Origin: Naegleria gruberi
Lineage: Eukaryota
DNA length: 64,000 bases
NCBI GenBank assembly: GCA_000004985.1
Contig: GG738899.1
Reading direction: 5' to 3' (one strand)
Below, piece by piece: positions 7,022 through 41,110 of the stretch. Below the pieces are notes generated by a model that ran no database searches, was not told where the DNA came from, and saw nothing but the letters and a program-made list of their open reading frames with translations. How positions within the stretch are numbered: the first letter of the stretch is position 1; every line of letters begins with the position of its first letter. Made by a program: the position numbers and the translations under genes.

Positions 7022-9331
7022 ATGCCTTCTTTGGCTCTGAAACTACTCTTGGTAGGAGTAAAGAAAATGTCTCTACAGCATCAGCAGCAACAGAAAGAAC
7101 AAGTACTGCAGTCAAATGCAAATAATGGACAAATTGTGGATGTTAGTACAGGTAGTGATGATGATAATAATGGATTGGAAGATGAAGGAAAAGGAGTGAA
7201 TTTGCATCATGTTCATAACATGTATGGACAAGTTAATAATGATGAAAATAATGGAGTAGTAACAACAACAATTGAAAGGACAATAGTAATGGATAATGAT
7301 GAGGATTCGGGTAGTAGAATAGCACTGGAATTGAATGCCATTCCACAGGAAGCTACACTGAATGGAAATGTAAAGACAACAACTTTGAATGATGTAATTG
7401 TTAAATCTACTTCACAGATCAAGTTGGAATTTCATGATGATCCCCTAGTTGAGGAACATGAGAGATGTTTCATGGAGTGGAGAAATGTGTGCTATCCAGT
7501 GGGAGGTAATAATTTAATTGTGAGAAATGTGAGTGGATTTGTTGCTCCTGGAAAGATTACAGCCATTATCGGTTCAGCGTTGAGTGGAAAAACAACTCTA
7601 TTGTCCATTCTATCACAAAGAGGAAATTACAAGGATTTTGGAGGATTAATTCTAATTAATGGAAAAGTTGTAAGGACATGTAAGGAAGGACCATGTGCTA
7701 AAATCTCATCAACTCAATACAAATCACTGATAGCTCATGTCCCAAAGCATTTTACAGCCTCTCATCCATTTCTTACTGTGAGGGAGATTTTGAATTTCAC
7801 AGTCAAACTGAAATTGACCAGTGTTAAAAGTGCACTCACCAAATGCAGAGAAGAACGATTAGAATACCTATTGACCAAGTATGAGCTGAAAGAAAAGGAG
7901 GATGAATTGTATTCAAAACTAGGAGTAGCAGAGAAGAGAAGATTGCACATTGCTGTACAGAATGTTCTCAAACATAGAGTTTTGCTACTGGAATATCCAA
8001 CTGATGGTTTGGAATTTGGAGAGGCATCCAGAATTATTAGAATTATGAAATCAATTGCCAAGATGGGAGTTGGTGTTGTTCTTACTTCACACAAACCAAG
8101 TTTATTAGAATTGGAATTATTCGACTACATTTCAATACTCAATAGAGGTAATCAATTATATTTTGGTCCTCCTGGTGAATTAATTCAATACTTTTCGAGA
8201 ATTGGTGTCAAACTTCACAACACCAACCATAATGAAGTGGGATTCTTGTTCCAAGTCATTTCTCTGCTTCAGGCAGAATCATTCCATCCAATGTACACCG
8301 ACACTTATGATACAAAGGAAAATACAGAGAGATTTTCCATAGAGTACGTAAGGCAAACAGAAGAGTTTTACATTCCAATGAAAAACAAGGAAGAAGCACC
8401 ATATTTGACCAATGACCTGACTCGTTTTCATTTTGAACCTTATTATGCCAACTTTTTCTATTCAGTATTCTTTCTGATGGCTAGAAATTACTTGAGCCGA
8501 ATTAGGAATTGGAAGGTTGAATTTCTAATTCCACTATTGGAAAAATTGGCTGTTTCAATATTTATTGGACTGCTTTATTTCCAAATTGATGAGGGAAATA
8601 TGTCGCTGAGAGGAAAGATTTTCACCTTTCTCAATCTTAATATCTCCCTTACTTTTACTGCGAGCTTGAAGAATCTTATCAATCAAATACCAATGTTAAC
8701 TCAGGAGAGAAACAGCTCTATCTACAGAACCAGTGTATTTTTCATTTCAAAAACCATTGAGGATTTGATAGAAACTTCGATTTTATCTCTATTATTTGGT
8801 TGGATTGTTTACTTTATGACTAACTTGAGATTGGAATATGACAGAGTATTAACGTTTGGACTGATTTTTGCAACCTACCATTGGACTTGTGTCAGTTTTG
8901 CGCAAATGCTGGTTTCTCTGATTCCTGTCCCACCATTGCTAAATTTAATTACACCAGTAATTAATATCATGTTCATATTAACGAGTGGGGTGTACGGTTT
9001 TCCGAACACTGATTGGTTGTCGTGGTTTAAATATTTGAACTATCTCTTTTATGGTTTCAAAGCAATGTCTCTCAATGAATTTGATATTCAATTGGAAATT
9101 CCAACAAATACTACCTGGCCTGCTAATTATTATACCAATGGAACCTATTTCCTCTACAAAAATTATGGATATTCAGATCCTCATTACATGATGTGGGTCT
9201 ATTTTGGAATTCTCACTTCTTTTTGGATTGTTTGTAAGATTCTGAGCTATGTTGGATTAAGATTAGTGTATGGAAAGAAGAGTTATATTCGACTTGCCAA
9301 GAAACTACTACGTTCATGGAAGAATACTTGA
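7022..9331 (+). CDS. ABCG-type (White-like) half transporter, NBD-TMD order, with a degenerate nucleotide-binding site
   Basis: Walker A-like GSALSGKTTLLSIL. The ABC signature is degraded to GVAEKRRLHIAV (consensus LSGGQRKRVSIA). Walker B reads VLLLEYPTDGLE (consensus LLLDEPTSGLD), so the catalytic Glu is replaced by Tyr. Six predicted TM helices follow (ABC2_membrane-like). Low-complexity Q/N-rich N-terminus. Confidence 0.65.
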   Translation: MPSLALKLLLVGVKKMSLQHQQQQKEQVLQSNANNGQIVDVSTGSDDDNNGLEDEGKGVNLHHVHNMYGQVNNDENNGVVTTTIERTIVMDNDEDSGSRIALELNAIPQEATLNGNVKTTTLNDVIVKSTSQIKLEFHDDPLVEEHERCFMEWRNVCYPVGGNNLIVRNVSGFVAPGKITAIIGSALSGKTTLLSILSQRGNYKDFGGLILINGKVVRTCKEGPCAKISSTQYKSLIAHVPKHFTASHPFLTVREILNFTVKLKLTSVKSALTKCREERLEYLLTKYELKEKEDELYSKLGVAEKRRLHIAVQNVLKHRVLLLEYPTDGLEFGEASRIIRIMKSIAKMGVGVVLTSHKPSLLELELFDYISILNRGNQLYFGPPGELIQYFSRIGVKLHNTNHNEVGFLFQVISLLQAESFHPMYTDTYDTKENTERFSIEYVRQTEEFYIPMKNKEEAPYLTNDLTRFHFEPYYANFFYSVFFLMARNYLSRIRNWKVEFLIPLLEKLAVSIFIGLLYFQIDEGNMSLRGKIFTFLNLNISLTFTASLKNLINQIPMLTQERNSSIYRTSVFFISKTIEDLIETSILSLLFGWIVYFMTNLRLEYDRVLTFGLIFATYHWTCVSFAQMLVSLIPVPPLLNLITPVINIMFILTSGVYGFPNTDWLSWFKYLNYLFYGFKAMSLNEFDIQLEIPTNTTWPANYYTNGTYFLYKNYGYSDPHYMMWVYFGILTSFWIVCKILSYVGLRLVYGKKSYIRLAKKLLRSWKNT

Positions 9332-13756: not shown

Positions 13757-16700
13757 TTATTTAAAATATGGATATTTGAGTAATTGTCTAGCTTGTGGTC
13801 TTGTTGCGCTATCTTTACCAACCATTTCAATAACGAGTTCAATAAGCTCAGTTGAGTAAATATTTGGTTTTTGCATATTTTCTGTAAGGATTTGTTTAAC
13901 TTGAGAACTGTCTTTAGAAAAATGGAGATGACTGATGGCAGTTGTAGTGTCATGTGTCATTAATTGATAAATAGTTACACCCAAACTGTAAACATCTGTG
14001 TTAAAACCATAACTTGCTCCCAAACCTAGTTCTGGACTCTGTGAAAATTGTTAACTTTCGAATAGCAATATACTAAACTTACCAAAAACATTGGAGTTCC
14101 ACAATAACTGTTATTTGCAGAAAGTGAATTATCCCTCGCCAATCCGAAATCTGCCAAAACTACCTGAATGTAATCTTGAGTCAATTCCTTAATAAAAATA
14201 TTCGATTCCTTAACATCTCTGTGAATCAGTTTCTTCTCTTCATGAATATATTCTAAAGCATTCAACATTTGGAACAATACACTTTTCAACAAGGTTTCGG
14301 ATATTTGAACTTTAAGTAAACTTGTCAAATCTCCCTTGTCATAATATTCCATCTCAATAACCAATAATTCATTCTTATCAACGAACATGTCATTCACCTT
14401 AATAATATTTGGATGTGCCATGTTCAATAATTGTAAACCTTCTTTCATGAATTGGTTTAGTTCAGAATAGGATTGGAATTTGATAGCTTTTAGAGCTTTG
14501 AAAGAATTGGTTTTGACATCGAAAGCTCTAAAGACAGATCCGAAACCTCCACTTCCAATCTTTACCATGTCCTTGAAACGACTCAATGGATCAAAAGAAG
14601 AAGAACTTGAGCTAGTTCCATTTGTGGAAGACGAAACTGATTGGAATTCCATGGTTGGTCGGAAGAATATGGAAGCTTCAGATTCGGGAAAATCGGTTGC
14701 TGTTATATCATTCTTGGATTCTATCATTTCCAAGTTGAGGTTTTCATTTGATTTCTTTTTTTTCCTAAAATAGAAAATTAGAATGATAATCAAAATTACA
14801 ATAATGACAATTAATAGAAAGACTGAAAGGATGGGAACTAGAGTTGCTATCAGAACTACTTGAGTTTCTTGTTGCTTTGAACTTTCTGGTGAGATTCGTA
14901 ATTGAGAACATTCGTTTCCAGAATAGTTTAAAGTACAGTTACATTGATTAGGAGAAACACATTGTCCTCTTTCTATGCCATTACATGCATCACTTGAATT
15001 CTTACCATAACAAATTGGAAGGCAATTCTCAAAATTTGAAATGAAATATCCAGTTGGACAGTTGACTGAAATTTTGTAAACAGTTCTAGCATTTGCAAAA
15101 AATATTTCACCAGTAGATTCACTAACAACAATCGAATTAGGATTACTATAAAAAACCATAATAATATCAACCTTTCCTTCCTTGTTTAGTTTCTTCAATC
15201 TTCCATTCTCAGCAAAATAAACTATTCCATTAATATTCGAAACATAAAGTGTACTAACAGCCTGTTGAGGGATATAAACAGTCGTTACAATTCCATTGCT
15301 ATCAATTTTCCTTATACCAACCGTATCTACATAATAGATTGAATCGGATAAACTATCGTAGCTTAATGAAACAGCACTTGAAATGATAAAATCAGTTGCT
15401 AGGGATCCGTCTGAGGAACGAGTGCCTCCACCAGCTACTTTTGAAATGGTATTATTTGAGGCCAATCTTATCAAGATATTATCTGAAAAGAATAAATAAC
15501 CACCTTCCTTATATGGTACAATTAATTTTGGACGTGGAATGTCTGTTAATCGATTGTTGACAACAGAACTTCCAGATCCAAACAAATCAAACGTTATCGT
15601 ATCAGTGAATGCTCGTACAATACAACGACACTGGTAGAAATTCTTGAGAAAAGGTTTTCAGGCATAATTGAGTCAACTACCACAACACTGCCTTGGAGTT
15701 TGGCTAATTTTAAAAATGCATGGGGCAATCCGGAGTGCCCTGTCTGTAGGGTATTGTCATTGTATTGTTCTGTGATTTCCATAATCTGCAAAGATATATT
15801 GGTTTGCAACTTTAGTAATTCCTGAAATTCCAGAAAGTTTTGTTTTCCTATTGTCAAACTCTGAGTTGTAATAACCTCCCAAACAAGGACCAATCAGATT
15901 TTTAACTCCCTTGCTTTGTAGATTGTATTGGAGTACTAGATTTTCACTTTGACTATATAAAATTAAATTATTTCCTGACATGGCTAAATTGGCCGAAAGG
16001 TCAACAAATTGTGGATCTTCACCATTGTATTCTCTGTAAACAGCTCCATAACCAGCTATTGTACTTAGTTTAGATGTTGTGTCGTTATACTTTCTTATTA
16101 ATTGATTTCCAGAATCGCAAATAATAAGTGTTCCATTTTGGTCAACTGTAAACGCAGTTGGATATCTTAATTTGTTATCATCAAAACCTGGTACGGTTCC
16201 AATCTGCGTGTTGCCGGCATTAGTAAGGTATCCATCTTCTGAATTGGTGTAAAACGACATTCCCTTATAGCGTCCCATATTTGTTACCTTGTATGGAAAA
16301 GTTGTAAGATATTGGAAAATATTTTCTATTATGATTGCAACAGAATTACCATCTGTAACAAATATACTTGTTTGTGATTGAATAGTTTCTACATAGATTG
16401 AGGTTGGTGCCTTAAAAAGATAATCAATATTCGAAACTATTCCATTCGAAACTATTCTAATTCTTCTATTTCCAGTATCTGAAATATAGAGAATACCATT
16501 ATTGTAGAATAAACCATTTGGATTGTTAAGCTGACAATTTATGGCCAAACCTTCTCCATTATATCCAGCAGTTCCATTTCCAGCTACTCTATAAACAGTA
16601 TCTGAGCTAATATTATAACGAATTACTCTATGATTATTCGAATCTGATATATACAATGATTGATAACTACTATCCATTACCAATGATTGAGGAAAATTCA

Positions 16701-18009
16701 GTAAAGTCTTGGTTCCTGCCATTCCATCAATGTCCGATAAAAACCCCGCTAATCCGGAATCTGCCCCAACCACTATTTTCAAAGTTTTGGTAGAAATGTC
16801 CAATTTCAATACTCGATTTGCATAACTTTCACTCATATAAATATTTCCCTCCAAATCTACAGCAATTCCTCTACATGCTGTCAATAGTTGAGTTTCGGCC
16901 ATGTAGACGAAACCTTGTCCTAAAGATTGAATTCTTTCAGTATTTGGGGAGAAACCAGCAAAGTTGTGCACATAGTTTTGTTCAATCACTCTAATTTTTT
17001 GATTATTTTTTTCTAAAAAGTAAACATTTCCATCAGACGAAACTTCAATACTTGTTGGATTGTAAAGAAAAAATTCAGTATCAAAGTGTTGCATTCCATT
17101 TCCTGCAATTGTTGTGATAGAACCATCTGTTGTTATCTTTCTAATACGATTATTTGCAGAATCTGCAAAGTAAACTTCATTATTCGAAACTCTAATGGCC
17201 TGTGGATAGTTTAGTTTAGTTTCAGTAGCACGTTTTCCATCTACATCAAACCCACATCCATTGTATCCTGCAATTGTTTCCATTTGTCCATTAAAAACTC
17301 TTCTCAATTTGCAATTGAACGTGTCAGCAATATAAATTTCACCTGTAGTATTCGAAACATGGACAGAATGTGGATAATTCAACATGGATAATGTTGCCAC
17401 ACCATCCGAATAACCAGCAGTTCCATTTCCAGCAATTGTCGTAATATTATTCGTAACAAACGAAAGCTTTCGAATAATATGATTTTCTTCTTCAACAAAA
17501 TACAATTCTCCACCATTTCTCTCAACTACAAATAAACCTCTTGGATTTTTCAAATTTGTTACCAATGCATTTCCATCTCCATTCCAAGAATCAACAAAAG
17601 TTCCAGCAACAATTGTTACCTTACTCAACAGATCGGAAGTAAAATTAAAAATTTGCTTTCCAGTCGAAACATAGATCGTATCCAGGGAGCTGCCACTCAT
17701 TCGTATTGAAGTAATTGCACGGTAGTCATTTCCGTTTCTTGTTGAAATGACAGTTTGACTAGTGACATTTATGGCGGTCAATTGGGAATCGTGAAGAACA
17801 TAAAGTGTGTCAATGCCATTGAAGGACATGTCAAGGGGTTGATAGAGTTTCAAGTTTCTGGCATGTTGGGATTGTCCAATAAATTTGGAGAGTTTATATT
17901 CGAGGGGAAGATTTTGGCCTTGTGTAAAAATTGGCAGCAATAATAAAAATGTCAAAGTCACTACACAAAATATCAGATAATTTGGCAAGTGACAGATGGC
18001 GTGTAACAT
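13757..18009 (-). CDS. NHL-repeat receptor Ser/Thr(/Tyr) protein kinase: signal peptide, about 20 NHL repeats, two EGF-like modules, TM helix, canonical kinase domain. The gene model is interrupted by two frameshifts at about 15590-15760 (possible pseudogene or assembly error)
   Basis: ATG at 18009 gives signal peptide MLHAICHLPNYLIFCVVTLTFLLLLPIFTQG. ORF 15757..18141 is wall-to-wall NHL repeats and ends ...ADYGNHRTIQ followed by TGA. Skipping one nt after that stop gives an NHL-like +1 frame (DNTLQTGHSGLPHAFLKLAKLQGSVVVVDS...). A second shift enters ORF 14026..15585 (more NHL, EGF CxCxxxYSGNEC, TM VVLIATLVPILSVFLLIVIIVILIIILIF, kinase with HRDVKESN, DFGLA). A 44-nt intron at 14039..14082 (GTAAGT...CACAG) joins GTPMFL|SPELGLGASYGFNTDVYSLG. 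There is no GT dinucleotide around the first shift, so it cannot be an intron. Confidence 0.5.
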
Positions 18010-18162
18010 GCTGAATTTTTTTTTGTTGGTTTGGAGTGTGACTCCGCCCTTTCCAGACTGAAATCTTTCAAAGGTTCCAACAAGACACTTCAATCTCTTT
18101 AAGCTTCTAAAAAGAGAAATTAATCGAATTTGTAATTTCACAAAAAATTCAAAAAAAATGAA

Positions 18163-20274
18163 ATGATCGTTGGTGGCGCCTTAAAAGGTCTCGGAATGAT
18201 TTTTCCCGCCAATTTGGAGCATATCGTAAATGAGGAGAATGAAGAGGAATTTATTTTGATTCGGAAGGGATTTGATAATAGAAAACAAGTTGCTTTAATT
18301 TCTGGTTAGTAACATATTCATTTGTTGGATTTGGATATATAAATTGGTGATACTATTTAATTTTATTATTTGATGATTTGATGAATTTAATTTGATTTTA
18401 ATATTATTGATGGTGATGAACAAATATGAAAAGGAGGAGGATCTGGACATTCACCATCACATGAAGGATTTGTTGCAAAAGGAATGCTCACAGCTGCTGT
18501 TTTGGGAGCTGTTTTTACTTCTCCGAGTGTTTTGCAAATCTTCAAGGCAATCACTGCTGTTACAAGCAGGAGACGAGTTGATGAAGAAGGAAAGGGATGC
18601 TTGTTGATTGTGAAGAATTATACAGGAGATATATTGAATTTTAGATTGGCTAGAGAAATGGCCATTCAAGATGGATATAATGTGGAGATGATTATTGTGG
18701 GAGATGGTATGTTGTTTGAATATATATGTGAAGATTGTAAAGTTTTTGAATGATTAGATGTTACTCATCAGAGAGGAGTTGCTGGAACTGTTTTTATTCA
18801 TAAATTGTGTGGAGCTATGGCTGAGAGAGGTGATTCATTGAGTGAGATTTTTGAGTTTATGAAATCAAAATTAAAAATCACATCGGAACAAGTATTGAAT
18901 AATGGAAATGAATCATTTATTAGGAGTATTGGAATTGGATTGAATAGTATTTCAATGCCAGGTAATTCGGAACCACTCTATGAATTGAGTGACAGCGATC
19001 CTGTCTATGAGCTCGGCTTGGGAATTCATGGAGAGAAGGGCGTTTGCAGACTTACATTTTCTCCAACTAATCCAGTCACTGAAATTTCCAACACAATGAT
19101 TGAACATTTATTACCAAAGGAATTCAGTGCCGAGAATCTCAAATTTGCTCTCATGATTAATAATTTAGGATCTACCACCTTGTTGGAAATGTACAATATT
19201 GCAAGGGTGGTAATTACCTTATTGGAAAATCAAAACATTTCTATTGAGAGAGTGTATGTTGGAACATTCATGACTGCTCTGAATATGCATGGATTCTCTC
19301 TCAGCTTGCTTAATTTAGCTCAAAACTCTGAACAATTATTAGAACTCTTGGACACTCCAACAGAGTCAATGTTTTGGCCAACTAGTTTGAATCTCTCCAA
19401 AAAATCAAACAATTCTTCGAGAACTAGTCACTCAACTGGAGGTATTAAACTGTCCCCTCAAATAGGAATAACAGCCACAACAAAATCCATCATATCTACT
19501 GAGGAAAATTCACAAGTAGAAAAATTCCTCTCACTCACAGGGGTCGTTTGTGATTTTATCTTGACAAGAATTAAAGAATATAATTCTTTGGACAGTGAAG
19601 TTGGAGATGGGGATTGCGGGAGTGCCATTGAAAGGTATGTACAAAATATCACATTATGTAATTATATAATTTATAACTATTTTATATATTTGGAATATTT
19701 TAGAGCTTGTGAATCAATTCAACAACACATCCTCAAAAAACAAGATTTGAAAATGACACTTGCCGAATTGGTTTATCAAATTGGAATTTGTGTTCAAAAT
19801 AGTGGAGGTAGTTCAGGAGCTATTATTTCCATGTTCTTTTTAAGATATTCCAAATCATTGAAAACGAATTCATTCGATCACAAGAAGGCATTCATTGAGG
19901 GAGTGCACGGAATGATGGAATTGGGTGATTCAAAGAAGGGAGACAGAACAATGCTCGATACTCTCATTCCAGTCAGTGAATATTTACAGGAACAAGAAGA
20001 ATCTATCGATGTGGAAACCATTGTTAAAGTTGCAAATGAAGGAATGGATAGTACAAAATCAATGCTTGCCAAAAGGGGTAGATCTCGTTATCTTGGAGAC
20101 AGAGTTTTAGGATTCTTAGATCCTGGTGCACTTTGCATGTTTGATATTGTCAAAATTTGGTCATTGTGGATGTTAGATAAATCACGGGTGGCTAACTCTA
20201 GCGATTTTTTTCGTGAAGTCTCCGACCCACGAGTTTTTTTTGCCACAGTAAATATTACAAGTTGTACTATTTGA
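18163..20274 (+). CDS. Dihydroxyacetone kinase / triokinase (DhaK + DhaL domains). join(18163..18304,18434..18741,18772..19634,19704..20274). The 3' end runs into the transposon, whose TIR supplies a 30-aa C-terminal extension
   Basis: Exon 1 is [15 protein letters not shown]...[10 protein letters not shown] 129-nt intron (GTTAGT...AAAAG) leads to [34 protein letters not shown] is the DhaK signature. A putative 30-nt intron (18742..18771, GTTTTT...ATCAG) removes an in-frame TGA and gives the same length between GDG and RGVAGT as in human TKFC. A 69-nt intron (GTATGT...TTTTAG) lies inside the DhaL domain, which carries GDGDCG. The reading frame reaches its stop only at 20272..20274, inside the element. 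Confidence 0.75.
20175..20182. repeat. Target-site duplication, left copy (AGATAAAT)
   Basis: Identical 8-mer immediately outside both TIR ends. Confidence 0.75.
20183..20241. repeat. Left terminal inverted repeat of the transposon
   Basis: CACGGGTGGCTAACTctagcgattttttttcgtgaagtctccgaCCCACGAGTTTTTttt. The capitalised blocks have reverse-complement partners at the right end. Confidence 0.7.
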
Positions 20275-20554
20275 ACCAATATACAATCAATAAATGTTTT
20301 GAAAATGTAAATAATCATATTTAAAGACTAGACTCTATCGTTTACCTGTTGACGAAAAATCTTGGGGTTTTATCAACCCCTAATAAAGAATTTGATGTGT
20401 GCAACAATCATAAAAATAAATATAACCATAAAAGGTATTGAAAAATGACTAACCGAGCTCAAAATCAAATATAACGAGTTTTATTCGAAATACTAATACA
20501 AAAATTGGTAAGTACCTTTCTTCTTACTTCAATAACGAAATGTAAAATTTTGAA

Positions 20555-23500
20555 TTAAATATCTTGAGAGTTGATGATTTGAGAAGGTTGCGGTTCAATT
20601 TCAATTTCCTCAAATAAGCAATTATTGCACCATCTTTCAAATTTAACACATGAATCACAAATAAGAGATCCACAATCATGACATCTACGTACTGACTGAG
20701 TTCTGAAGTGACATGATTCACAGACAAATTGAGGGAAATGAGTGGAACAATTTTTACAAACTCCTTGAAATTCACATAAATTACAAATCTCCACTCCACA
20801 TTGATTACACTCATCAAGTGATTTTGTGTATCCTAAACAAATGTGGCATGGATAAATTGGATAGAAAAGTTCTGTAAAACAATCTATGCAATATAATTGA
20901 TGCCAACATGAATCACAAAACAACCTGAAACAATCACCACACTTATTAATTCCTCTCTCATGTCTACAATAGTTGCAACCTTGTTGTTCACAAATATCTG
21001 GATCACATTTACAAGTATTTGGAAAGCAATATCGTTCATTCTTCTTACAGGAGCATTTAAGGTTTGAGCAACTGGTTGTACAACGGCATCCTGTTACCTT
21101 AGTAAGCTTGGATTCTGAATTTGATTTCTTTCTTTTTTTCTCAATATTTGAGGTTTTAGAGAATTCTTGAATATTCGAAATGGCTGTGTTAACATCATCA
21201 AAAAATTTGTTTAAAATATTAAATAATCCAATTACATCAAAGAATGCACAATGACAATCCGCAACATTTCCCACTTGGAAATGTTCAATTAACATTTCTT
21301 CTTTGAATGCAGTTCTTCCACTACTCTCTTTTTTTGGTAATTTGTGATGTAGATCTTTGTGGCTTTTCATTAATTTCAAGGAATCTACGAAAACTATATT
21401 TTCAAACTTTGATTCTCTTTTCGGATAAAACTCTTTCTTAAATACTTTGAAATCAAGTATCTCACCATTGTGCGCAATTAAGAAAGTTTTCCCTTTAGTA
21501 TTACTAATAAAATCAATAATAAAATCAAGCTCCTTTTCAATGATTGGTTTGTCTCTTACATAATTCAAATTGATTCCAGTAATCTTTGTTGAATGATATG
21601 AAATTGATTTTGTTGGATTTACTAATCCATAAATTGATTCACCTGTTGCCATATTTAAAAAGCAATATTCTGTTATTTTTGGTGGATCATCATTTGTCCA
21701 AAATCCTGTTGTTTCAAAATCAAACAGAATATATTTGTCATCTCCAAAATCATGTTGAAATGGAAGACCCTTATTGTGTGTGTACAAATCATCATTGAAT
21801 AAAATTCTGGAAGCTCGTGGGATTGGTTCTGAAGGTCTAATTTTTTGATCTACTATTGATTTATCAACAGTATTTGTAATAAGTGTTAATAAATTATCAC
21901 TGTCCAATAGGTTGGAAGAATCTGACTGTTTGATTGATTTCAATAAAGCTTCAATCATTGACTGCTTTCCCTCTGAAAATGAATAATTATGAACGTTCAT
22001 TACATGTTTCAAAAATGATTTCAATCTCACAAAAGGTTGATTACATTCTTTACAAAGAATGTAAATATTATTCATGATGTTTTTTGAGTCAATGTTCGGT
22101 GGATTTTTACACATGAATTCTCGTATGAGCATAGTGTTTCTTTGAGGTTCAAATCCTTCTACAGCATCCAATATATAATCGAACATTTCAGTAAAACTAT
22201 TTTCTTTCTCTAATATTTGATCTTCTTCTTCCTCTGTAAGTTTTTTCTTATTCTTCTTCTTATACTTCTTTCTAGTTAATTCCTCATACTCCAATTCCAA
22301 ATCTATTTTTCCATAACAATTCGAATAACTCTCATTTCTCAAAACAAATGGTCCGTCACTTAGTTTTGCTTTTAACACTAACCAAACAGATCTATAACAG
22401 GAACAATAATCCATAAATGTTGGATATCTAATTTTGGATCTAACAATGCTGAAACAATGTTCTACCATTAATGTAGATAAGCTACAAGTACATAGCTCAA
22501 TTGTTGGAAATCTTGTCTTAAGCTCCTTTAAGGATTTTAATGTAATTATAATATGATCAAATAATTCATTATTTAAAGAAATATCGTTTGATTTTTGCCA
22601 TGGATTAATAAATTGAAAAACAGAGTCTAACAGAATCTCTTTTGCTTCCCAACAATAATCATTTTTGAAAATATAATAAATATCCTGCATTAGTTTTAAA
22701 TATTTAGAGACTGTTTGACAAGTAGTATTTTTTGATTTGGCCAAACCATCAATTAAATTAGTTTCTAATAATGCAAATACGGGATCCATAGCCATTTTGT
22801 CAGTAGGATAAATCACAGAATTAGGTAGCCAATCAGTTAAATTTGATTCAGATTTGGCAATCAATAACGTCTCAATTGAAAATGAAATGCCATCTATAGT
22901 CATGGTTTCATTTAGTAATCTATTTCGTAATCGTTTTAGTAGATGAGAGTAATCAAAGAAGTGAACAGTATTGGGAAATATTTTTTGTGTTTGGAAAAAT
23001 GTTAAATTTCCAGTCAATCCATCGCTACTGAAACCTACAACTTGGAAAGAATAATTATTTAACTGAATTCTTTCAAACTGTTCCTTAATCTTTTTTACTT
23101 GATCTTCCAAAAAATCTGCATGACTTGATTTTGTACAACCTGCAAACATTAAAGGGAAAGAAACACTTCCATCAATTGTAGTAGCAAAGAATTGGCAAAT
23201 GTGAGAAGCAATTTGGGAAGGTACAATTTCTTCTTTAGATTTGTATAGCTGATCAAAATCTTTTTCATTATAATCTGCAAATCCTATAACTTTTCCAGAA
23301 TCTTTAAGAACACATAACCCTCCTCTTATTTCTATTTCATCATATGAAATTATTATATTATTCGTAACTTTCTTTTTCTGTATAGATTTCAATAAAGATT
23401 GCAAATCTAAATCAGAGGTTTGCCCTGTAGATAATTTGGGAAGATAAGATTTCACTGTTGCTAGAGATGGAAGTAATAAATTCACTTCATCAAGGGCTGT

Positions 23501-24226
23501 TTGAGAATTCAAAGCTGAGCCATTTCCTTTCAATATTTTCCATATTTTTGATCCACCAAAATATCTTAAAATTAGACACCAATGAATAATAGATTCCTTA
23601 TACTGATATCCTCTTGACTTATTATAATTAGTGATATTTTCCAAAGTATTTTCCATTAATTGGTAGAAAAATTGTTGTTCATGCAGTTTTTCATCTTCAA
23701 TAGCAGCAATCACCAATTTTACAAGTTTGTGATGATGAATTTTGGATAGTTTTTCCTCTAATGAATCCAATTTTTCTTCCCGTCTTGTTAACATAGATTT
23801 TAATTGAGATACTTTCTTTCTTAATTTCTCTATTTGATCTTTTTGTTTGATTAATTTTTCGTCAGAGTTGTTTGATTTAGTGGTTGTCATATGTCGCAAT
23901 TTTTCATATAATTGATAACAATCTGTGCAAACTCCATTCCGATTTAAATTAATATTTCCACATTTCAATGATTTGAAAATGAAATTTCCATTATCATTAA
24001 ATGATACAATTCCTACTTCATTGTTTCGTTTGTCACAAACTTTTCCATCATAATTTAATAAATTCCATACTTTTTCCACAGCAACTCCTTTACATGTAGT
24101 ATTATTATTTTTACAGTTAGCACATGATCGTGTATCAGCATGTTTACATTTCCCCATGCCTTCTTTAATTTCCGAAAATCCTTTTTCTGAATTATATTCA
24201 ACTTTGATCGTTTCATCATTTGCCAA
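20555..24226 (-). CDS. Transposon-encoded 1223-aa polyprotein. N-terminal Cys-cluster region, coiled coil, central region of about 600 aa (putative transposase core, unclassified), DEDDh 3'-5' exonuclease domain, C-terminal array of at least 8 B-box/zinc-ribbon-like CxxC...CxxC modules
   Basis: Intronless 3.7-kb ORF in a genome whose host genes have an intron every few hundred bp. Exo I motif ILFDFETTGF, Exo II LIAHNGEILDFKVF, Exo III CHCAFFDVIGLFNIL (H-x-A-x-x-D): the complete DEDDh triad set. Coiled coil around DQIEKLRKKVSQLKSMLTRREEKLDSLEEKLSKI. The C-terminus carries repeated pairs of the type CQQGCNYCRHERGINKCGDC, CDSCWHQLYCIDC, CHICLGYTKSLDECNQCGVEIC, CEFQGVCKNCSTHFPQFVCESCHFR, CHDCGSLICDSCVKFERWCNNC. 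Confidence 0.75.
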   Translation of the reverse strand: MANDETIKVEYNSEKGFSEIKEGMGKCKHADTRSCANCKNNNTTCKGVAVEKVWNLLNYDGKVCDKRNNEVGIVSFNDNGNFIFKSLKCGNINLNRNGVCTDCYQLYEKLRHMTTTKSNNSDEKLIKQKDQIEKLRKKVSQLKSMLTRREEKLDSLEEKLSKIHHHKLVKLVIAAIEDEKLHEQQFFYQLMENTLENITNYNKSRGYQYKESIIHWCLILRYFGGSKIWKILKGNGSALNSQTALDEVNLLLPSLATVKSYLPKLSTGQTSDLDLQSLLKSIQKKKVTNNIIISYDEIEIRGGLCVLKDSGKVIGFADYNEKDFDQLYKSKEEIVPSQIASHICQFFATTIDGSVSFPLMFAGCTKSSHADFLEDQVKKIKEQFERIQLNNYSFQVVGFSSDGLTGNLTFFQTQKIFPNTVHFFDYSHLLKRLRNRLLNETMTIDGISFSIETLLIAKSESNLTDWLPNSVIYPTDKMAMDPVFALLETNLIDGLAKSKNTTCQTVSKYLKLMQDIYYIFKNDYCWEAKEILLDSVFQFINPWQKSNDISLNNELFDHIIITLKSLKELKTRFPTIELCTCSLSTLMVEHCFSIVRSKIRYPTFMDYCSCYRSVWLVLKAKLSDGPFVLRNESYSNCYGKIDLELEYEELTRKKYKKKNKKKLTEEEEDQILEKENSFTEMFDYILDAVEGFEPQRNTMLIREFMCKNPPNIDSKNIMNNIYILCKECNQPFVRLKSFLKHVMNVHNYSFSEGKQSMIEALLKSIKQSDSSNLLDSDNLLTLITNTVDKSIVDQKIRPSEPIPRASRILFNDDLYTHNKGLPFQHDFGDDKYILFDFETTGFWTNDDPPKITEYCFLNMATGESIYGLVNPTKSISYHSTKITGINLNYVRDKPIIEKELDFIIDFISNTKGKTFLIAHNGEILDFKVFKKEFYPKRESKFENIVFVDSLKLMKSHKDLHHKLPKKESSGRTAFKEEMLIEHFQVGNVADCHCAFFDVIGLFNILNKFFDDVNTAISNIQEFSKTSNIEKKRKKSNSESKLTKVTGCRCTTSCSNLKCSCKKNERYCFPNTCKCDPDICEQQGCNYCRHERGINKCGDCFRLFCDSCWHQLYCIDCFTELFYPIYPCHICLGYTKSLDECNQCGVEICNLCEFQGVCKNCSTHFPQFVCESCHFRTQSVRRCHDCGSLICDSCVKFERWCNNCLFEEIEIEPQPSQIINSQDI

Positions 24227-24356
24227 TTTTTCAACAAATCTTATTAGCTTCTGATAATGACTGTGACATAAACGTGACGTTTTTTTGTTGATTATTATAT
24301 TATCAGGAACATTTCTTGTGCCAGGCTGTTTACAACAACAACAACTTGTACGTTGT

Positions 24357-24408
24357 TTTCTTCATGACATTTTTTTGTTTTTTACTCAAAAAAATGTCAT
24401 GAAGACCC
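24357..24408. repeat. Second subterminal hairpin inside the transposon, just upstream of the ORF start
   Basis: cttcatgacattttttt gttttttactc aaaaaaatgtcatgaag (17-bp perfect inverted repeat). Confidence 0.6.
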
Positions 24409-24612
24409 AACACAGCCGGAGTTCTTTACCTAGGATGTTCAAGCCAAGTATTATTCTCAAGAAACTAGAACCAATTCATAAATTAAATATTTAATTAGAT
24501 TACTAGTAATAACCCGCCAGGTTCATACAATGAATAAACATTTAAATTTTTTTATTTTTTAACGGAATTAATTTGCTTTGATGAAAATATAATGGAGACT
24601 GTTGGTATGTTT

Positions 24613-24721
24613 CATGCAAAGTTCCACGTTGGTCAAATAATTATTAACATCAACAAGTAGTAGAAAACAGTAGGTTTTAAATTATTGGATTAGTTTTTTG
24701 ACCAACGTGGAACTTTACATG
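24613..24721. repeat. Subterminal hairpin inside the transposon (25-bp inverted repeat, one mismatch, about 60-nt loop)
   Basis: catgcaaagttccacgttggtcaaa ... tttgaccaacgtggaactttacatg. Confidence 0.65.
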
Positions 24722-24934
24722 AACGAGGGCACACTTTGAAGATTATTTTTCTGTGGCTTTATGTTATTCTTGTAATATATCTACAGACTCGGAAAGTTGC
24801 CAAGCAATAAATAAACAATACTAGTACTCATATGTTCAAAAGAATGACAAAGATCAACTTTAGATGTATTATAAATCGATTTAAAAGTTGAAAATTATTT
24901 ATTGATGAGCAACAACAAATTCCAATTTTATTTA

Positions 24935-24999
24935 AAAACTCGTGGGACACAAATGCTCGATTGCCTGAGCCAAAAATGACCCATAGTTAGCCACCCGTG
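24935..24999. repeat. Right terminal inverted repeat of the transposon
   Basis: AAAAACTCGTGGGacacaaatgctcgattgcctgagccaaaaatgacccatAGTTAGCCACCCGTG. Confidence 0.7.
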
Positions 25000-25007
25000 A
25001 GATAAAT
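25000..25007. repeat. Target-site duplication, right copy (AGATAAAT)
   Basis: Identical 8-mer immediately outside both TIR ends. Confidence 0.75.
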
Positions 25008-25194
25008 GATTGAGTTTTGTGAAACAGCTCATCAACGGAAATTGGTTGTATCCAATTAATTTTCAAAAAAGAAATCCATTATCTTACTGTAATCAATTAT
25101 TACAATCTAAAATTGATTACAAGTAGCATCTGATACCAACACCATTATAACCAAACTGTTGAAACTTGACGAAACTTTTTCATCTTTAAAAAAA

Positions 25195-26496
25195 ATGAAA
25201 AGATTCATTGGTGGTTTATTTCTCGTACTAATCTTTGCCACTGTTGCCATGTGTGCCAGCAGTGATGCATTCGACACCTTGAGTGATTACATCTCTCTCG
25301 CAGACTCCCTCAGAGGAGGTGGTTCTTCAGGAGGTGGAGGTGGCAGAGGAGGTGGATCCGGTGGTGGTGGCAGAGGAGGAGGTAGCTCTGGAAGTAGAGG
25401 AGGATCCAGCAGAGGAGGAAGTAGCTCTGGAAGATCAAGCACTGGAGGTAGATCAAGTACTGGTGGTAGATCAAGAAGTACTGGAGGAAGAGTTTCTGGA
25501 CCTGGTCGTTCACCAACTGGACCTTCTAGATCAATTGGTGCAACTAAAGGTGGAAGAGTTGGAGGAAGAGTTGGTGGAAGAGTTTCTGGACCAGGTAGAT
25601 CACCAACTGGACCTGCCAGATCAAGAGTTGGAAGAGTTTCTGGACCAGGACGTGCTCCAACATCTGTTTCCATTCAAAGAAATGCCATTCAAAGTAGAAT
25701 TAATGCTGCATTTGCTGGATTGAGTAAGGTTTCTACCAATCCTGCCTTGTCAGCTGCTCTTTCTAGATATGCCTCAATGAAAGCTGCTTCCTTGAAAGCT
25801 CCTTCAGTAACTAGTGCATTATTCTCCAAGACTCCATTGGGTCCAGTGAGTACTTTCTCAAAGGTCAACCCATCCTTGCCAACCAACAAGTTCACTAAAC
25901 CTGCAACTGTTGCCAATGTTCCTATTCCACAACCTCGTCCTGCCAATTTGGCCAAACCAGCAACTCAAACTGTTGCTGCTACTACCAGTGTCAAGAATCC
26001 AATTAATCCTGCTGGTGTCCAAAGAGTTGCTCGTAGTAAGCAACTTACTGGACCACAAGTAGCTCAAAAAGCAATTAAGGAATTAGCTGCTGCTGGTGTT
26101 ACTTTATCAGCCGATCCAAAACAAAGAATTGCTCAAATTGCTGACCAAATGGCCAACCCAGGATCATTACACAAATGTGCTGGTTATGTTGCTGCTGCTG
26201 TTGAAGCTGCTACAGGAGTCTCTCTCAGCAGACCTGCCTCAGCTGAAGCTAAGGATTACGGAACTACCATGGCCAAGGCTGGAATGAAGTCAATTCCAAA
26301 TAATAGCACTCCACAAATTGGTGATGTCAGAGTGATTGGACCATCTCCAACCAATGCCAAGTACAGTATTGGTCATATGGAGACCTATACTGGACCAAAG
26401 AGTGGATGGGTTTCTGATTATGCTCAAGGAGTATCTGCTGTTGATAATCCAAAGAGTGCTTATCATGGAGCTTCTGTTTCTACCTATCGTTTCTAA
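25195..26496 (+). CDS. Secreted protein with a Gly/Ser/Arg-rich repetitive region, an Ala/Pro/Ser-rich linker and a C-terminal CHAP-like (cysteine, histidine-dependent amidohydrolase/peptidase) domain
   Basis: Signal peptide MKRFIGGLFLVLIFATVAMCASS. Degenerate tandem peptide repeats (GGGSGGGGRGG..., RVSGPGRSPTGP x3). The C-terminal module HKCAGYVAAAVEAATG ... IGDVRVIGPS ... YSIGHMETYTG ... WVSDY has the Cys...G-D-V...G-H-hydrophobic spacing of CHAP/NlpC-P60 peptidoglycan hydrolases. No introns. Confidence 0.55.
   Translation: MKRFIGGLFLVLIFATVAMCASSDAFDTLSDYISLADSLRGGGSSGGGGGRGGGSGGGGRGGGSSGSRGGSSRGGSSSGRSSTGGRSSTGGRSRSTGGRVSGPGRSPTGPSRSIGATKGGRVGGRVGGRVSGPGRSPTGPARSRVGRVSGPGRAPTSVSIQRNAIQSRINAAFAGLSKVSTNPALSAALSRYASMKAASLKAPSVTSALFSKTPLGPVSTFSKVNPSLPTNKFTKPATVANVPIPQPRPANLAKPATQTVAATTSVKNPINPAGVQRVARSKQLTGPQVAQKAIKELAAAGVTLSADPKQRIAQIADQMANPGSLHKCAGYVAAAVEAATGVSLSRPASAEAKDYGTTMAKAGMKSIPNNSTPQIGDVRVIGPSPTNAKYSIGHMETYTGPKSGWVSDYAQGVSAVDNPKSAYHGASVSTYRF
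25310..25680. repeat. Coding low-complexity tandem repeat (GGN/AGA-rich, irregular 9-36-nt units)
   Basis: The repetitive ggtgg/aggagg/agagg runs generate the spurious overlapping ORFs seen in all frames of the ORF track at 25283..25723. Confidence 0.5.
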
Positions 26497-26694
26497 TTTT
26501 TATTTGATAATAAATATATTGATTTAGGTAAATAATAACTTGCTTATTCACACAATTCTTTTCAATCCAATTTGGAATATTTCAATTTCACTGGTTGCTC
26601 AAGTCATACCTCTTTTGATTCCTAATTGGAGAGTGATACGTAATATTAATATTGAAAACTTTTACAACGACATCATCAAAATAATTCAAAAAAA

Positions 26695-28386
26695 ATGTCT
26701 TCACTGCTAACAAGCAAACAAATTTCTCAACTTGTTTCTCTCCCAGGCAACAATAAATGTGCCGATTGCCAAGCACCAAATCCCCGATTTGCCGATATTA
26801 AACAATTCACACTTTCGTGTATTTCATGTGCAGGAATTAAACGAACCAAGATTGGAACACATGTTTGTCAGTTGAGAGTTGTTGGACTGGATACTTGGAA
26901 AGAAGAACACTTTAATGCAATGATTGAACAAGGAGGAAATGATGCAGTGAATCGAATTTTGGAAGCCGAATTGAAAGATCAAGATAGGAAGGAAGAAATG
27001 AAGGATATGACACGTTTTATTCGTGCAAAGTATGAAGAGATGCGATGGAAGGGATGTAAAGCATTGAATGAGGTGTTTATGAAGAGCTACTGGTGTAATT
27101 TGAAGGAATTATTGGAAAGGAATGGAGCAGTTGGTAGTATTGAAATAGTTTTGAAGAGTGTAAATTCGAATGATTGTGTGAGAGTTAAACAAGGTCAGAA
27201 AATGTATGAAATTAATTTGAGAGATTTTACAATGGAACAGATAGAGAATTCAACCGATAGCTCAATTGAATTGAGTTTAAACTCTTATCAATCAATTGAC
27301 AAACCAATCTATCAAGCAATGATTGATCAGTCAGACGAAATTTCAATATTTAGTAATGGAAGAGGATTTTTCAAACGTTCAGGGACGAGATTGTTTGATT
27401 TTAATTTAGAAAATGATTTTATTTTACAAATTATTTCTACAATTAATGGAATTTTTGTAATTGACAGGAATTTGAAAGTTTACAAATATTATTTCTTGAA
27501 AATTTGTGAAAATGAAAAGTTTACAAATGGAATTACTCTTCAAAAATGCGAGAGAGATGAAACTCCATGTGGATTGACCTATTTTAAATCATTCATTTCA
27601 AGAATTTATCCTAATTTGTATAAATTCATTGAAAATGATAATTTGTTAACAAATGAGGAAATTGGAACGCTAAATATTATATTCAACATGTTACTATATG
27701 ATAATTATGATATTAATGGCATTGATTTATTTTCATTAGCTTGTATTATTAATAATTCAACCCCAGATTTGGATTTTTTTATGGAAAAACTTGAGTTTTT
27801 AACATTTAAAGATATGAATGGAATACAAACTGTTATTGAAAAGGTTAAGAATTATATTGGTGAAAATTCTACTAGATCAGTATCATTTCTTAAATTATAT
27901 TTATTTAAATGTTTACAATTTATTTCCAATTATGGAAATGTTAATAATATCAAGATTTACTTACCATTCAATTATAGTTTGAAACCTAAATCGAAAGAAA
28001 ACTTGACATGTCTATTTAATTGTCAAAAAAGTAGTGATATTACTATAAAAATAGAAAATGAATTATTTTATTTGCATCGAACAGTATTAACAAGTAAATC
28101 TTCAGTATTTAAAATAATTTTGGACGAAAATAGTAAATTTAATGATGTGAAAAATAATATTTTGGAAATTGATTGTGAAATATTTAAAAATTCCAAAAAT
28201 GGAAATGTTCCAAATTTAATGGTTAAATGCTTTACAATACTATTTAACTATTTTTATGATTTTGAAATTGATTTATCAAAATTTAACTTTTATCTAATGT
28301 CTACATTATTAGAAATGTCTCAATTTTATCAACTCGATCAATTCCATGATAAAATCAACAATGAATTGAAATTTTTTCGATTTTGA
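26695..28386 (+). CDS. ArfGAP-domain protein with a C-terminal BTB/POZ-like region
   Basis: N-terminal ArfGAP zinc finger CADCQAPNPRFADIKQFTLSCISCAGIKR (C-x2-C-x16-C-x2-C) plus the conserved R. BTB-like DITIKIENELFYLHRTVLTSKSSVFKIIL near the C-terminus. Single exon. Confidence 0.7.
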   Translation: MSSLLTSKQISQLVSLPGNNKCADCQAPNPRFADIKQFTLSCISCAGIKRTKIGTHVCQLRVVGLDTWKEEHFNAMIEQGGNDAVNRILEAELKDQDRKEEMKDMTRFIRAKYEEMRWKGCKALNEVFMKSYWCNLKELLERNGAVGSIEIVLKSVNSNDCVRVKQGQKMYEINLRDFTMEQIENSTDSSIELSLNSYQSIDKPIYQAMIDQSDEISIFSNGRGFFKRSGTRLFDFNLENDFILQIISTINGIFVIDRNLKVYKYYFLKICENEKFTNGITLQKCERDETPCGLTYFKSFISRIYPNLYKFIENDNLLTNEEIGTLNIIFNMLLYDNYDINGIDLFSLACIINNSTPDLDFFMEKLEFLTFKDMNGIQTVIEKVKNYIGENSTRSVSFLKLYLFKCLQFISNYGNVNNIKIYLPFNYSLKPKSKENLTCLFNCQKSSDITIKIENELFYLHRTVLTSKSSVFKIILDENSKFNDVKNNILEIDCEIFKNSKNGNVPNLMVKCFTILFNYFYDFEIDLSKFNFYLMSTLLEMSQFYQLDQFHDKINNELKFFRF

Positions 28387-38959: not shown

Positions 38960-41110
38960 ATGTCTTCGGCTGCGAACAACAATACTAACAACAATAATTT
39001 TCCATATGGGAAGAGAATAACCCACACTTCCTCGACAGTAGGGTCTTCATCTAATGTTGGTTCTGCCTCATCAAATTCTAATAGTACTAGTATGAAGTTG
39101 GGTAATCTCTCACCAATACAACATTATAGGAGCTCAAATTTACATGGCACCTATTCTCACTCTGATATCAGAGGGGAACAAACAAAGAATATGGATGAAG
39201 TCATTTTGCATAATACTCAAACCTTGATGGATTACAATACTCCAAGGGGAGCCAATAACAATGATTTTGAATTGAAGAGTAATACTTCTCCACTTTCTTC
39301 AACATCAGAGAGTAGTGCCATTTTCAATAAGCCCTTGGATCAGTTGGTAAAGTGTTTTTTATGTTTCAACAAACCTTCATCACCTCACTTGTGCCCTTGC
39401 TGTTCCAAAATTGTCTGTTTGGGATGTGCAAAGAAGTGGATCTCGGAAAAGAGTTCTTGTCCAAACTGTAGATCACCCCTTTCAACAAGTCAATTAGTTA
39501 ATTGTAAATTTGTAACAGAGATTTCATCTGAGTTGGAAAAGCTTCAAACTCAAATCAAGAAGGACAAAACTATTGTTCCTTCAAGAGCAAGTTTAGTGAA
39601 TGAACATTGTTCTAGCCACGATCTTCCTCTGATTTATTATTGTGAAACTTGTAAGGAGCCAATCTGTTCTGATTGTGCAATGTTTGAGGAAAAACACAAA
39701 AATCACAAATTTAAAAAGGTCAATGAAGTTTACAAGGAATGTGTTGACATTGTAAAGGTAGAATCTGAAACTGTTAAAACTCGTCTGAAAGATTTGAACT
39801 CTCTCACACTGAGTATCGAAGAAAATATTAAGAGAATTACCAAAGCAAAGGAGGAAACCTTAAAAACAATCAATGAAACTGTCGAAGAAATGCGTACTAA
39901 TTTGGATTCACTCTATAAGAGCAAGCTTTCATCATTGGTCTCCCAAAAGAATATGATTATTGATGAAATTGCCATGTTAGAGAAGCTAACCAAAGAGTTG
40001 GGAAGACAAATTGAGACGAGTCCACAATGTGTTTTGATATCCAAAACTCCAGACATTGTCCGTGTAGTGGATGAAATCAATAAGAAGCCAACAGTTGCCT
40101 TCAATAAGATTGCTGTAACAGAAAGTTTCCCTAATGAAATTGTTCCACCATACGAAGGAGGCCAGTTTCGTATAGAAAACTATTCTGAATTACTTAAAAC
40201 AACCGAAGTTATTTATTCTGATCCAATCACTATTAATGGATTGCAATGGAGGTTGAAGGTTTATCCAAATGGTACAGGAGTTGCCAAGGGAGTTTTTATA
40301 TCTGTCTTTTTAGAAATGTTCAAAGGGTTGACTGAACCTAAAAAGTACCACTACAAGGTTGAAATGGTAAATAAGAGAGATACCTCAAAGAATATTGAAA
40401 GATCATTTGCCTCAATTTTCGAATCTGGAGAATGTTGGGGGTATAATAGATTCTATCGAGTTTCAGAGTTGGCTGGAAATGGGTTTATTGATGTAGATGA
40501 TGATGTTTTGAACTTGAATTTCTTTGTGAGACCAACATCATACTTTGAATTATGTTTAGAGCAAGCAAGATACATTAAAGACCTGGAAGATTTCAAAAAG
40601 ATGAATCCAATTACGAGTGTTACAACTGAGGAGGAAGTTGCAGAAGAGGCAAACAACCTATTGAAGGAGGAAGCATTCAACAATCCAAATCTCTCCCCAA
40701 TTGAAGAAACAGAGACTTATCAATTCCTTGTGGAAAGTGAGGAAACAATCGGCAATCACCAAGTTCAAGAGCAAGAAAATACTTCCTTAAAGATAGAAGA
40801 AGATAATTCTTTCTCGATCAATACCCAAATAACCCCTGAAGCTGATGAATCCATATCTCCAACAGTTTTTATCAATCCAATAGATGAAGATATTGTCACT
40901 ATCGAGCAAGACACAAGCATTATATCTTCTGATGGTAGCCAACTGGTTATTGAACAGGTTGAAGAAAAATCAGACAATAAGGAACCATCAACGGCAGGAT
41001 CTGTCTGGTCCAAGTCCCAACAAGAGCAAGCATTCTCATTGCCATCAGTTGGAAACCATAGTAGTGACACCGTTAATGTTTCAATATCATCAATAGAAAA
41101 CAGTGATTAG
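38960..41110 (+). CDS. TRIM37-like tripartite-motif protein: RING finger, B-box, coiled coil, MATH/TRAF domain, acidic C-terminus
   Basis: RING CFLCFNKPSSPHLCPCCSKIVCLGCAKKWISEKSSCPNCRS. B-box CSSHDLPLIYYCETCKEPICSDCAMFEEKHKNHKF. Long coiled coil. MATH domain QFRIENYSELLKTTEVIYSDPITINGLQWRLKVYPNG...FFVRP. Confidence 0.7.
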   Translation: MSSAANNNTNNNNFPYGKRITHTSSTVGSSSNVGSASSNSNSTSMKLGNLSPIQHYRSSNLHGTYSHSDIRGEQTKNMDEVILHNTQTLMDYNTPRGANNNDFELKSNTSPLSSTSESSAIFNKPLDQLVKCFLCFNKPSSPHLCPCCSKIVCLGCAKKWISEKSSCPNCRSPLSTSQLVNCKFVTEISSELEKLQTQIKKDKTIVPSRASLVNEHCSSHDLPLIYYCETCKEPICSDCAMFEEKHKNHKFKKVNEVYKECVDIVKVESETVKTRLKDLNSLTLSIEENIKRITKAKEETLKTINETVEEMRTNLDSLYKSKLSSLVSQKNMIIDEIAMLEKLTKELGRQIETSPQCVLISKTPDIVRVVDEINKKPTVAFNKIAVTESFPNEIVPPYEGGQFRIENYSELLKTTEVIYSDPITINGLQWRLKVYPNGTGVAKGVFISVFLEMFKGLTEPKKYHYKVEMVNKRDTSKNIERSFASIFESGECWGYNRFYRVSELAGNGFIDVDDDVLNLNFFVRPTSYFELCLEQARYIKDLEDFKKMNPITSVTTEEEVAEEANNLLKEEAFNNPNLSPIEETETYQFLVESEETIGNHQVQEQENTSLKIEEDNSFSINTQITPEADESISPTVFINPIDEDIVTIEQDTSIISSDGSQLVIEQVEEKSDNKEPSTAGSVWSKSQQEQAFSLPSVGNHSSDTVNVSISSIENSD

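Follow-up and report, generated by a model that had tools for sequence, protein, structure and literature searches.

Which bacterial enzyme an apparently secreted, cell-wall hydrolase-like protein of the heterolobosean Naegleria gruberi descends from, and what it may do for its host, are the questions raised by a single gene at 25195-26496 (plus strand) of a 64,000-nucleotide stretch of contig GG738899.1 (assembly GCA_000004985.1; hereafter the window). An earlier note had described its product as a secreted CHAP-like peptidoglycan amidase or peptidase encoded next to a transposon, and had suggested a horizontally acquired antibacterial enzyme. Our analysis indicates that it is likely a nuclear gene of N. 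gruberi descended from bacterial Tae3 (type VI secretion amidase effector 3), that is, a Dae3-type domesticated amidase effector, and the suggested horizontal acquisition fits the published Dae paradigm.

The gene is a complete, single-exon coding sequence for the proposed Dae3-type (Tae3-derived) peptidoglycan amidase precursor. In the sequence and the listing of open reading frames (ORFs), it runs from an ATG at 25195, preceded by an A-run, to a TAA at 26494-26496 through 433 uninterrupted codons, so that both the coordinates and the intronless structure given in the earlier note hold; that note numbered the domain as residues 330-445 because the listed ORF reaches back to a TTG at 25159 (445 aa). 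The next gene lies 198 bp beyond the stop codon, and an Rfam scan of 24000-27000 returned no match. The predicted mature protein is strongly basic (isoelectric point, pI, 11.4) and contains one cysteine, the full-length product having cysteines at positions 20 and 328 only.

The evidence for descent from Tae3 lies in the folded C-terminal domain, aa 286-433 (26050-26493, plus strand). When the protein was compared with PDB sequences by phmmer, aa 316-432 matched 4HZ9_A with E 6.1e-10; 4HZ9 chain A is Tae3 of Ralstonia pickettii, whose catalytic dyad is C23/H81 (PMC11796386). A word-indexed protein search gave one relative only, P0001, and it was an exhaustive search of 1.84 billion representatives that revealed the family, with 272 relatives at E <= 0.001. 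A profile built from 20 family sequences, the window's own included, matched 4HZ9_A end to end (E 1.8e-39), and among the six-frame peptides of the window the Tae3 profile matched the amidase ORF alone (E 5.7e-39). With a 97-sequence alignment as input, the AlphaFold2 (AF2) model of the domain was confident and was used in place of the single-sequence model, for which the predicted local distance difference test score (pLDDT) was 44.6. The C-terminal domain has a Tae3-type papain-like fold.

The residues expected of a working enzyme are in place. Cys328, the sole cysteine of the mature protein (codon TGT, 26176-26178, plus strand), and His394 (codon CAT, 26374-26376, plus strand), which lie in the HKCAGYV and IGHMETY stretches already nominated as catalytic, align by phmmer with C23 and H81 of Tae3, respectively. 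The Tae3 triad is Cys-His-Ser, with serine as its third member (PMC10318531), and the corresponding serine is found in the Ser407-Asp408 pair of WVSDY (26413-26418, plus strand). In both the 20- and the 97-sequence family alignments the invariant columns are C, G-D, G-H and S-D; the Cys...GDV...GH arrangement noticed earlier is located at C328, G376-D377-V378 and G393-H394, and its C, G-D and G-H elements are thus among the invariant positions. As read from these alignments, the predicted catalytic set of Cys328, His394 and Ser407 is intact in the Tae3-type domain.

Judging by its members, the Tae3 domain family is bacterial in origin. Its named members come from Paraburkholderia, Hafnia, Minicystis and Planctomycetota, with one PAAR fusion (PF05488). 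Those of Paraburkholderia and Hafnia alvei are 120-121 aa long, and each has a DUF3828 gene directly downstream whose product matches the immunity protein Tai3 (chain 4hz9_B, E 7e-37). Further members are fused to PAAR, or are terminal in Rhs-like or very large proteins. Several very large proteins of 2,200-2,800 aa (P0020, P0026, P0050, P0113 and P0146) have a Tae3-type domain close to the C-terminus and give the impression of polymorphic toxins or of structural lysins of phages or tailocins; in P0026 the region downstream of the domain resembles a lysozyme or tape-measure-like tail.

The remaining parts of the protein precede this domain. The protein starts with MKRF, followed by IGGLFLVLIFATVAM and CASS, giving a basic n-region, a 15-residue hydrophobic core and small residues at -3/-1; on the Kyte-Doolittle scale, residues 5-19 average 2.56, compared with 1.31 for the best 15-mer past residue 25. 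This n/h/c organisation agrees with the signal peptide proposed earlier, which we assign to aa 1-23 (MKRFIGGLFLVLIFATVAMCASS; 25195-25263, plus strand), with predicted cleavage after Ser22 or Ser23. Just past it stands a short acidic motif, DAFDTLSDYISLAD (25264-25305, plus strand), possibly a pro-segment or sorting segment. The repetitive Gly/Arg-rich region described in the earlier note is equally real: a Gly/Ser/Arg-rich low-complexity region spans aa 38-157 (25306-25665, plus strand; net charge +21, pI 12), with 46 G, 27 S and 20 R among its 120 residues, short tandem arrays in the DNA with periods of 18 (x2.4) and 12 (x3), and three occurrences of GRVSGPGR[SA]PT. The GC content at third codon positions (GC3) is only 0.09 in this region, and its codons are therefore of the host type. 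Matches of the region to single-chain variable fragment (scFv) and major histocompatibility complex (MHC) single-chain constructs in the PDB reflect (G4S)n linkers and were rejected as showing no homology. Between this region and the domain lies a cationic middle rich in Ala, Ser, Pro, Lys and Thr (aa 158-285; 25666-26049, plus strand; net charge +17, pI 12), in which no Pfam match and no known domain was found.

Orthologue-like proteins with the same overall architecture are encoded on two short metagenome contigs, L001 and L002: each has an acidic motif, a polycationic low-complexity region and a Tae3 domain, preceded by a signal peptide in L001 and by the tail of one in L002. Their Tae3 domains are 33-47% identical to that of the window, and for the domain of L002 (P0002) a value of 47-49% was also obtained. 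Within 402-1332 of L001, P0001 is a frame-shifted call whose Val/Gln-rich N-terminus is an alternative frame of the Gly/Ser/Arg repeat; the true N-terminus lies in ORF 402-752, has a signal peptide and a G/S/R region similar to those of the window, and reads MKRSSCVLLCLLSLLALFCLVSAS, then DMFDLLGDYLELADAM, then a G/S/R repeat ending GRVSGPGRS. The acidic motif is kept in both contigs, DAFDTLSDYISLADSL in the window corresponding to DMFDLLGDYLELADAM in L001 and HPYDELADAMVEMLSD in L002, where the signal-peptide tail is followed by ...YDELADAM.... The middle region of L001, which precedes its Tae3 domain, has GP-x-STFSKV-x-PSLPTNKFTK in common with the window, as well as I-x-SRI-x-x-AFA (BLASTP and alignment with P0001), while the basic linker of L002 differs and carries RPTT-type repeats. 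The N-terminal extensions have net charges of about +19 (L001) and about +23 (L002), compared with a median of -3 for the rest of the family where an extension of 40 residues or more is present. In the window, L001 and L002 alike, the extension has kept its charge but not its sequence.

A member of the family is also present in the pathogen Naegleria fowleri, as CAG4718412.1 (P0150; also P0299) on contig L016, 5985-6555 (ENA ERZ2098899). Its annotated Asp/Glu-rich N-terminus is a wrong reading frame; an alternative frame, 5985-6248, encodes an RGG/Gln-rich cationic stretch that runs into the pre-catalytic helix and ends at a stop codon, shifted by 1 nt relative to the domain. This disruption could be a frameshift, an assembly error or an intron, and given that coverage of the assembly is about 2x, an assembly error may account for it. 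No signal peptide was seen at the L016 locus, and the neighbouring genes (GH31, adh_short) are unlike those of the N. gruberi locus. L001, L002 and the N. fowleri homologue keep the catalytic and core residues as well as the architecture; at 30-47% identity these sequences are too divergent for a ratio of non-synonymous to synonymous substitution rates (dN/dS). A scan of metagenomes with an alignment of the three orthologues found distant relatives only (33-39% identical). In a neighbour-joining tree the window's sequence clusters with mostly signal-peptide-bearing or eukaryote-like sequences, with negligible bootstrap support: 0-21% for the grouping and 36% for the window with P0002. The green alga Chlamydomonas incerta encodes a further member, KAG2433258.1 (P0137). 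Separately, P0036 appears to come from another eukaryote with a Tae3-like domain, the GH32 and WD40 genes on its contig being broken into pieces in the way that introns would cause.

If the protein is a domesticated Tae3, it would enter the secretory/endolysosomal pathway, encounter bacteria extracellularly or inside food vacuoles, and cut the peptide cross-links of their peptidoglycan, with Cys328 as the nucleophile activated by His394. The weakened sacculus would then help the bacterivore to kill and digest its prey. For Tae2 and Tae3 the bond cleaved is the mDAP-D-Ala peptide cross-link of peptidoglycan (PMC3695027). More speculatively, the extension of about 260 residues, polycationic (pI about 12) and probably disordered, could concentrate the enzyme on anionic bacterial surfaces such as lipopolysaccharide (LPS) and teichoic acids, and it may assist passage through the outer membrane; the acidic motif may mask its charge or serve in sorting.

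These last steps can be combined into a bolder, rather doubtful proposal, in which the protein would be a natural outer-membrane-breaching lysin: the extension would bind and disorganise LPS or teichoic acids, the Tae3-derived endopeptidase would thereby reach peptidoglycan from outside without a type VI secretion system (T6SS), and the acidic motif would serve as a pro-segment that masks this charge up to the time of delivery. On this reading the extension would be a functional module; its charge is conserved in the window, L001 and L002, and the N. fowleri domain is likewise preceded by an RGG-rich stretch. Were it true, it would overcome the reported difficulty of access faced by tick Dae2, an enzyme that does not cross the Gram-negative outer membrane unaided (bioRxiv 10.1101/2020.04.10.036376).

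Several points weigh against the assignment of a domesticated, secreted amidase. The signal peptide was called by inspection and hydropathy only, and the role given to the cationic extension derives from its charge alone. Neither Pfam nor NCBIfam gave a meaningful match when the whole protein and its two halves were scanned, the matches to TafF (E 0.31) and Med25 (E 0.098) being low-complexity noise. The protein has no record in the protein collection that we searched (see below), and with it no independent gene model or support from expressed sequence tags (ESTs). The domain itself is divergent, sharing 39% identity with bacterial Tae3 and 30% with its N. fowleri homologue, to which it is thus no nearer, and it has lineage-specific insertions, TNAKYSI and GPKSG, beside the catalytic His. 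Given this divergence and the position of the insertions, substrate specificity may have shifted. A functional enzyme repurposed to a non-peptidoglycan substrate, for instance in remodelling the host's own cyst wall or the proteins of its surface, or acting on a different amide or isopeptide bond, is nonetheless unlikely: the residues that are invariant in the peptidoglycan-cleaving Tae3 relatives are all retained, peptidoglycan is an abundant substrate for a bacterivore such as Naegleria, and both tick Dae2 (bioRxiv 10.1101/2020.04.10.036376) and Nematostella (sea-anemone) Dae4 (PMC8713801) gained a signal peptide while keeping peptidoglycan-degrading, antibacterial activity.

The missing record also raises the possibility that the gene is a decaying relic or pseudogene without current function. 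An exact look-up of the 433-aa product in a collection of 15 billion proteins returned no record, and the product was also missing from the results of a word-indexed search that used aa 156-433, while other N. gruberi proteins of the same window were present at 100% identity; the window's ArfGAP ORF had no record by exact look-up either. The amidase gene is probably missing from the N. gruberi reference annotation, or modelled differently there. In addition to this absence from the annotated set, a transposon 187 bp upstream, the divergence of the domain and the apparent frame disruption of the N. fowleri homologue in the available assembly would all suit a relic. We consider decay quite improbable, as the 433-codon frame is unbroken in a genome of 34% GC, all family-invariant catalytic and structural residues are kept, AF2 gives a confident model, both divergent contigs L001 and L002 show the complete architecture, and the transposon lies outside the gene with a clean target-site duplication (TSD).

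An enzyme of the CHAP (PF05257) or NlpC/P60 (PF00877) families proper, outside the Tae3 family, is very unlikely, since the profile scores already speak against it. The earlier assignment to CHAP/NlpC-P60 stands at the level of the superfamily, as the domain has in common with these enzymes the papain-like amidase fold and the Cys...His order. At the level of the family it does not: neither Pfam model matched the whole protein or the isolated domain at E <= 10, and in the profile search that matched Tae3 end to end the next matches were an endolysin of the CHAP type (E 7e-4) and CwlO, an NlpC/P60 enzyme (E 0.13). By sequence comparison, then, the domain is of the Tae3 family specifically, and "CHAP/NlpC-P60-like papain-fold amidase" is correct as a superfamily description.

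Given that the domain family is overwhelmingly bacterial and that the protein lacks a record among annotated proteins, bacterial contamination or a chimeric assembly, with no Naegleria gene at all, had to be weighed as well, and is highly improbable. The gene sits within the 64-kb window between eukaryotic genes, including ArfGAP-BTB, Kelch-BTB-RWD, ATG27, RING/B-box/MATH, NHL-kinase and GH44-EGF genes, and an ABCG ORF at 7022-9328 is 100% identical to an N. gruberi predicted protein. Its relative synonymous codon usage (RSCU) correlates with that of the pooled host ORFs (r = 0.91) and its GC3 of 0.22 lies inside the host range, the higher overall GC of the gene being due to its Gly/Ala/Arg/Pro content. 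The product bears a signal peptide of eukaryotic type together with a low-complexity extension, and no Tai3 partner accompanies it, as phmmer searches with two Tai3 sequences found no homologue at E <= 10 among the six-frame peptides of the window. A single-protein scan of 185,579 bacterial and archaeal species genomes, one per species, found no close relative, while a homologue exists in N. fowleri (CAG4718412.1). The amidase gene is a eukaryotic nuclear gene and not a contaminant.

The neighbouring transposon pointed out in the earlier note is real, and its adjacency is incidental. It is an intact-looking P-element-type DNA transposon of 4,817 bp (20183-24999, minus strand), separate from the gene and bounded by perfect 15-bp terminal inverted repeats (TIRs; CACGGGTGGCTAACT) at 20183 and 24999 and by the 8-bp TSD AGATAAAT at 20175-20182 and 25000-25007. 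Its transposase ORF (1,223 aa; 20555-24226, minus strand) has a TNP-like (P-element/THAP9-type) RNase H domain. This ORF also contains a YILFDFETTG stretch, which we take to recall motif I of DEDD 3'-5' exonucleases, and a long Cys-rich C-terminal tail; neither had a Pfam match at E <= 0.001. The insertion point coincides exactly with the stop codon of the Dak1/Dak2 (dihydroxyacetone kinase, DAK) ORF upstream, whose frame now runs 30 codons into the element, and in-silico removal of the latter with one TSD copy restores the DAK stop (...WMLDK*). The clean TSD suggests that the insertion is recent. That the gene was carried in by this element, or is part of it, has next to no probability even though the two directly adjoin (4.8 kb of P-type element beside the gene), since the element is sharply bounded at 20175-25007 with the amidase ATG 187 bp beyond its TSD, its removal restores the DAK stop, and no such element is found on L001 or L002 within the available sequence; the element therefore inserted later and independently, and it was not the vehicle of the amidase gene. 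Elsewhere in the window, the RING/B-box/MATH (TRAF-like) gene at 38960-41110 (plus strand) and the adjoining NHL-repeat and NHL-kinase ORFs at 14026-18141 (minus strand) belong to the ordinary gene complement of N. gruberi.

Taken as a domesticated Tae3, the gene would place a heterolobosean, free-living and bacterivorous, among the eukaryotes that have taken up type VI "weapons" of bacteria, a process already known from ticks, sea anemones and others, in a genus that includes the pathogen N. fowleri, likewise with a homologue. It would mean that the Tae3 lineage, beyond Tae2 and Tae4, has also been domesticated with a secretion signal, and captures from this lineage may be spread more widely than those of Dae2 and Dae4 in animals. 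What is new here is modest, namely the conserved polycationic extension and the apparent absence of the gene from the searched protein collection. As the N. gruberi gene is apparently unrecorded and the N. fowleri model apparently mis-framed, surveys of horizontal transfer that start from proteomes would miss or misread both. The recurrent fusion of an amidase with an Arg-rich polycation offers a testable idea of how a toxin that acts in the periplasm could be delivered by a eukaryote that has no injection machine, and it could inform the design of lysins against Gram-negative bacteria.

Dae3 genes of protists have reportedly been described before. Capture of Dae genes as such has been known since 2015 (Chou et al. 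2015, Nature 518:98, as relayed in PMC8713801 and bioRxiv 10.1101/2020.04.10.036376), with Ixodes scapularis Dae2 and Nematostella vectensis Dae4 as examples in those accounts. In the open-access library searched, we found no paper linking Naegleria or amoebae with amidase effectors.

Compared with Tae3 itself (for example that of R. pickettii; PDB 4HZ9/4HZB), whose bacterial proteins are about 120 aa long, lack a signal peptide, are delivered by the T6SS and have an adjoining Tai3 (DUF3828) gene, the Naegleria protein has a signal peptide, a polycationic extension of about 260 aa, an extra N-terminal helix, insertions beside the catalytic His and no Tai3. Given the N. gruberi host and the eukaryotic-type signal peptide, we therefore regard it as a descendant of Tae3 and not as a T6SS effector itself; the lack of a Tai3 partner and of T6SS delivery is expected of a domesticated copy. 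It resembles Dae2 and Dae4 as a tae gene captured by a eukaryote, with a signal peptide gained, the catalytic Cys and His kept, and the immunity partner and secretion apparatus lost, and like them it would be expected to act on bacterial peptidoglycan. It differs from them in belonging to the Tae3 lineage rather than to Tae2 or Tae4, in its free-living bacterivorous heterolobosean host, which is not an animal, and in its long Arg-rich low-complexity extension, none being mentioned for Dae2 or Dae4 in PMC8713801 and bioRxiv 10.1101/2020.04.10.036376. Two other protist enzymes belong to other families: the laterally acquired NlpC_A1 of Trichomonas vaginalis (PDB 6BIM) is a C40 NlpC/P60 enzyme with SH3b domains, and Tae4 of Giardia muris has the bond specificity of Tae4, gamma-D-Glu-mDAP. 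[quoted passage not shown] In them, as in the Naegleria protein, a peptidoglycan hydrolase is covalently joined to a strongly cationic segment, an analogy of possible mechanism and not of homology, and the Naegleria protein differs from them in being natural and in having, at about 260 aa, a far longer extension.

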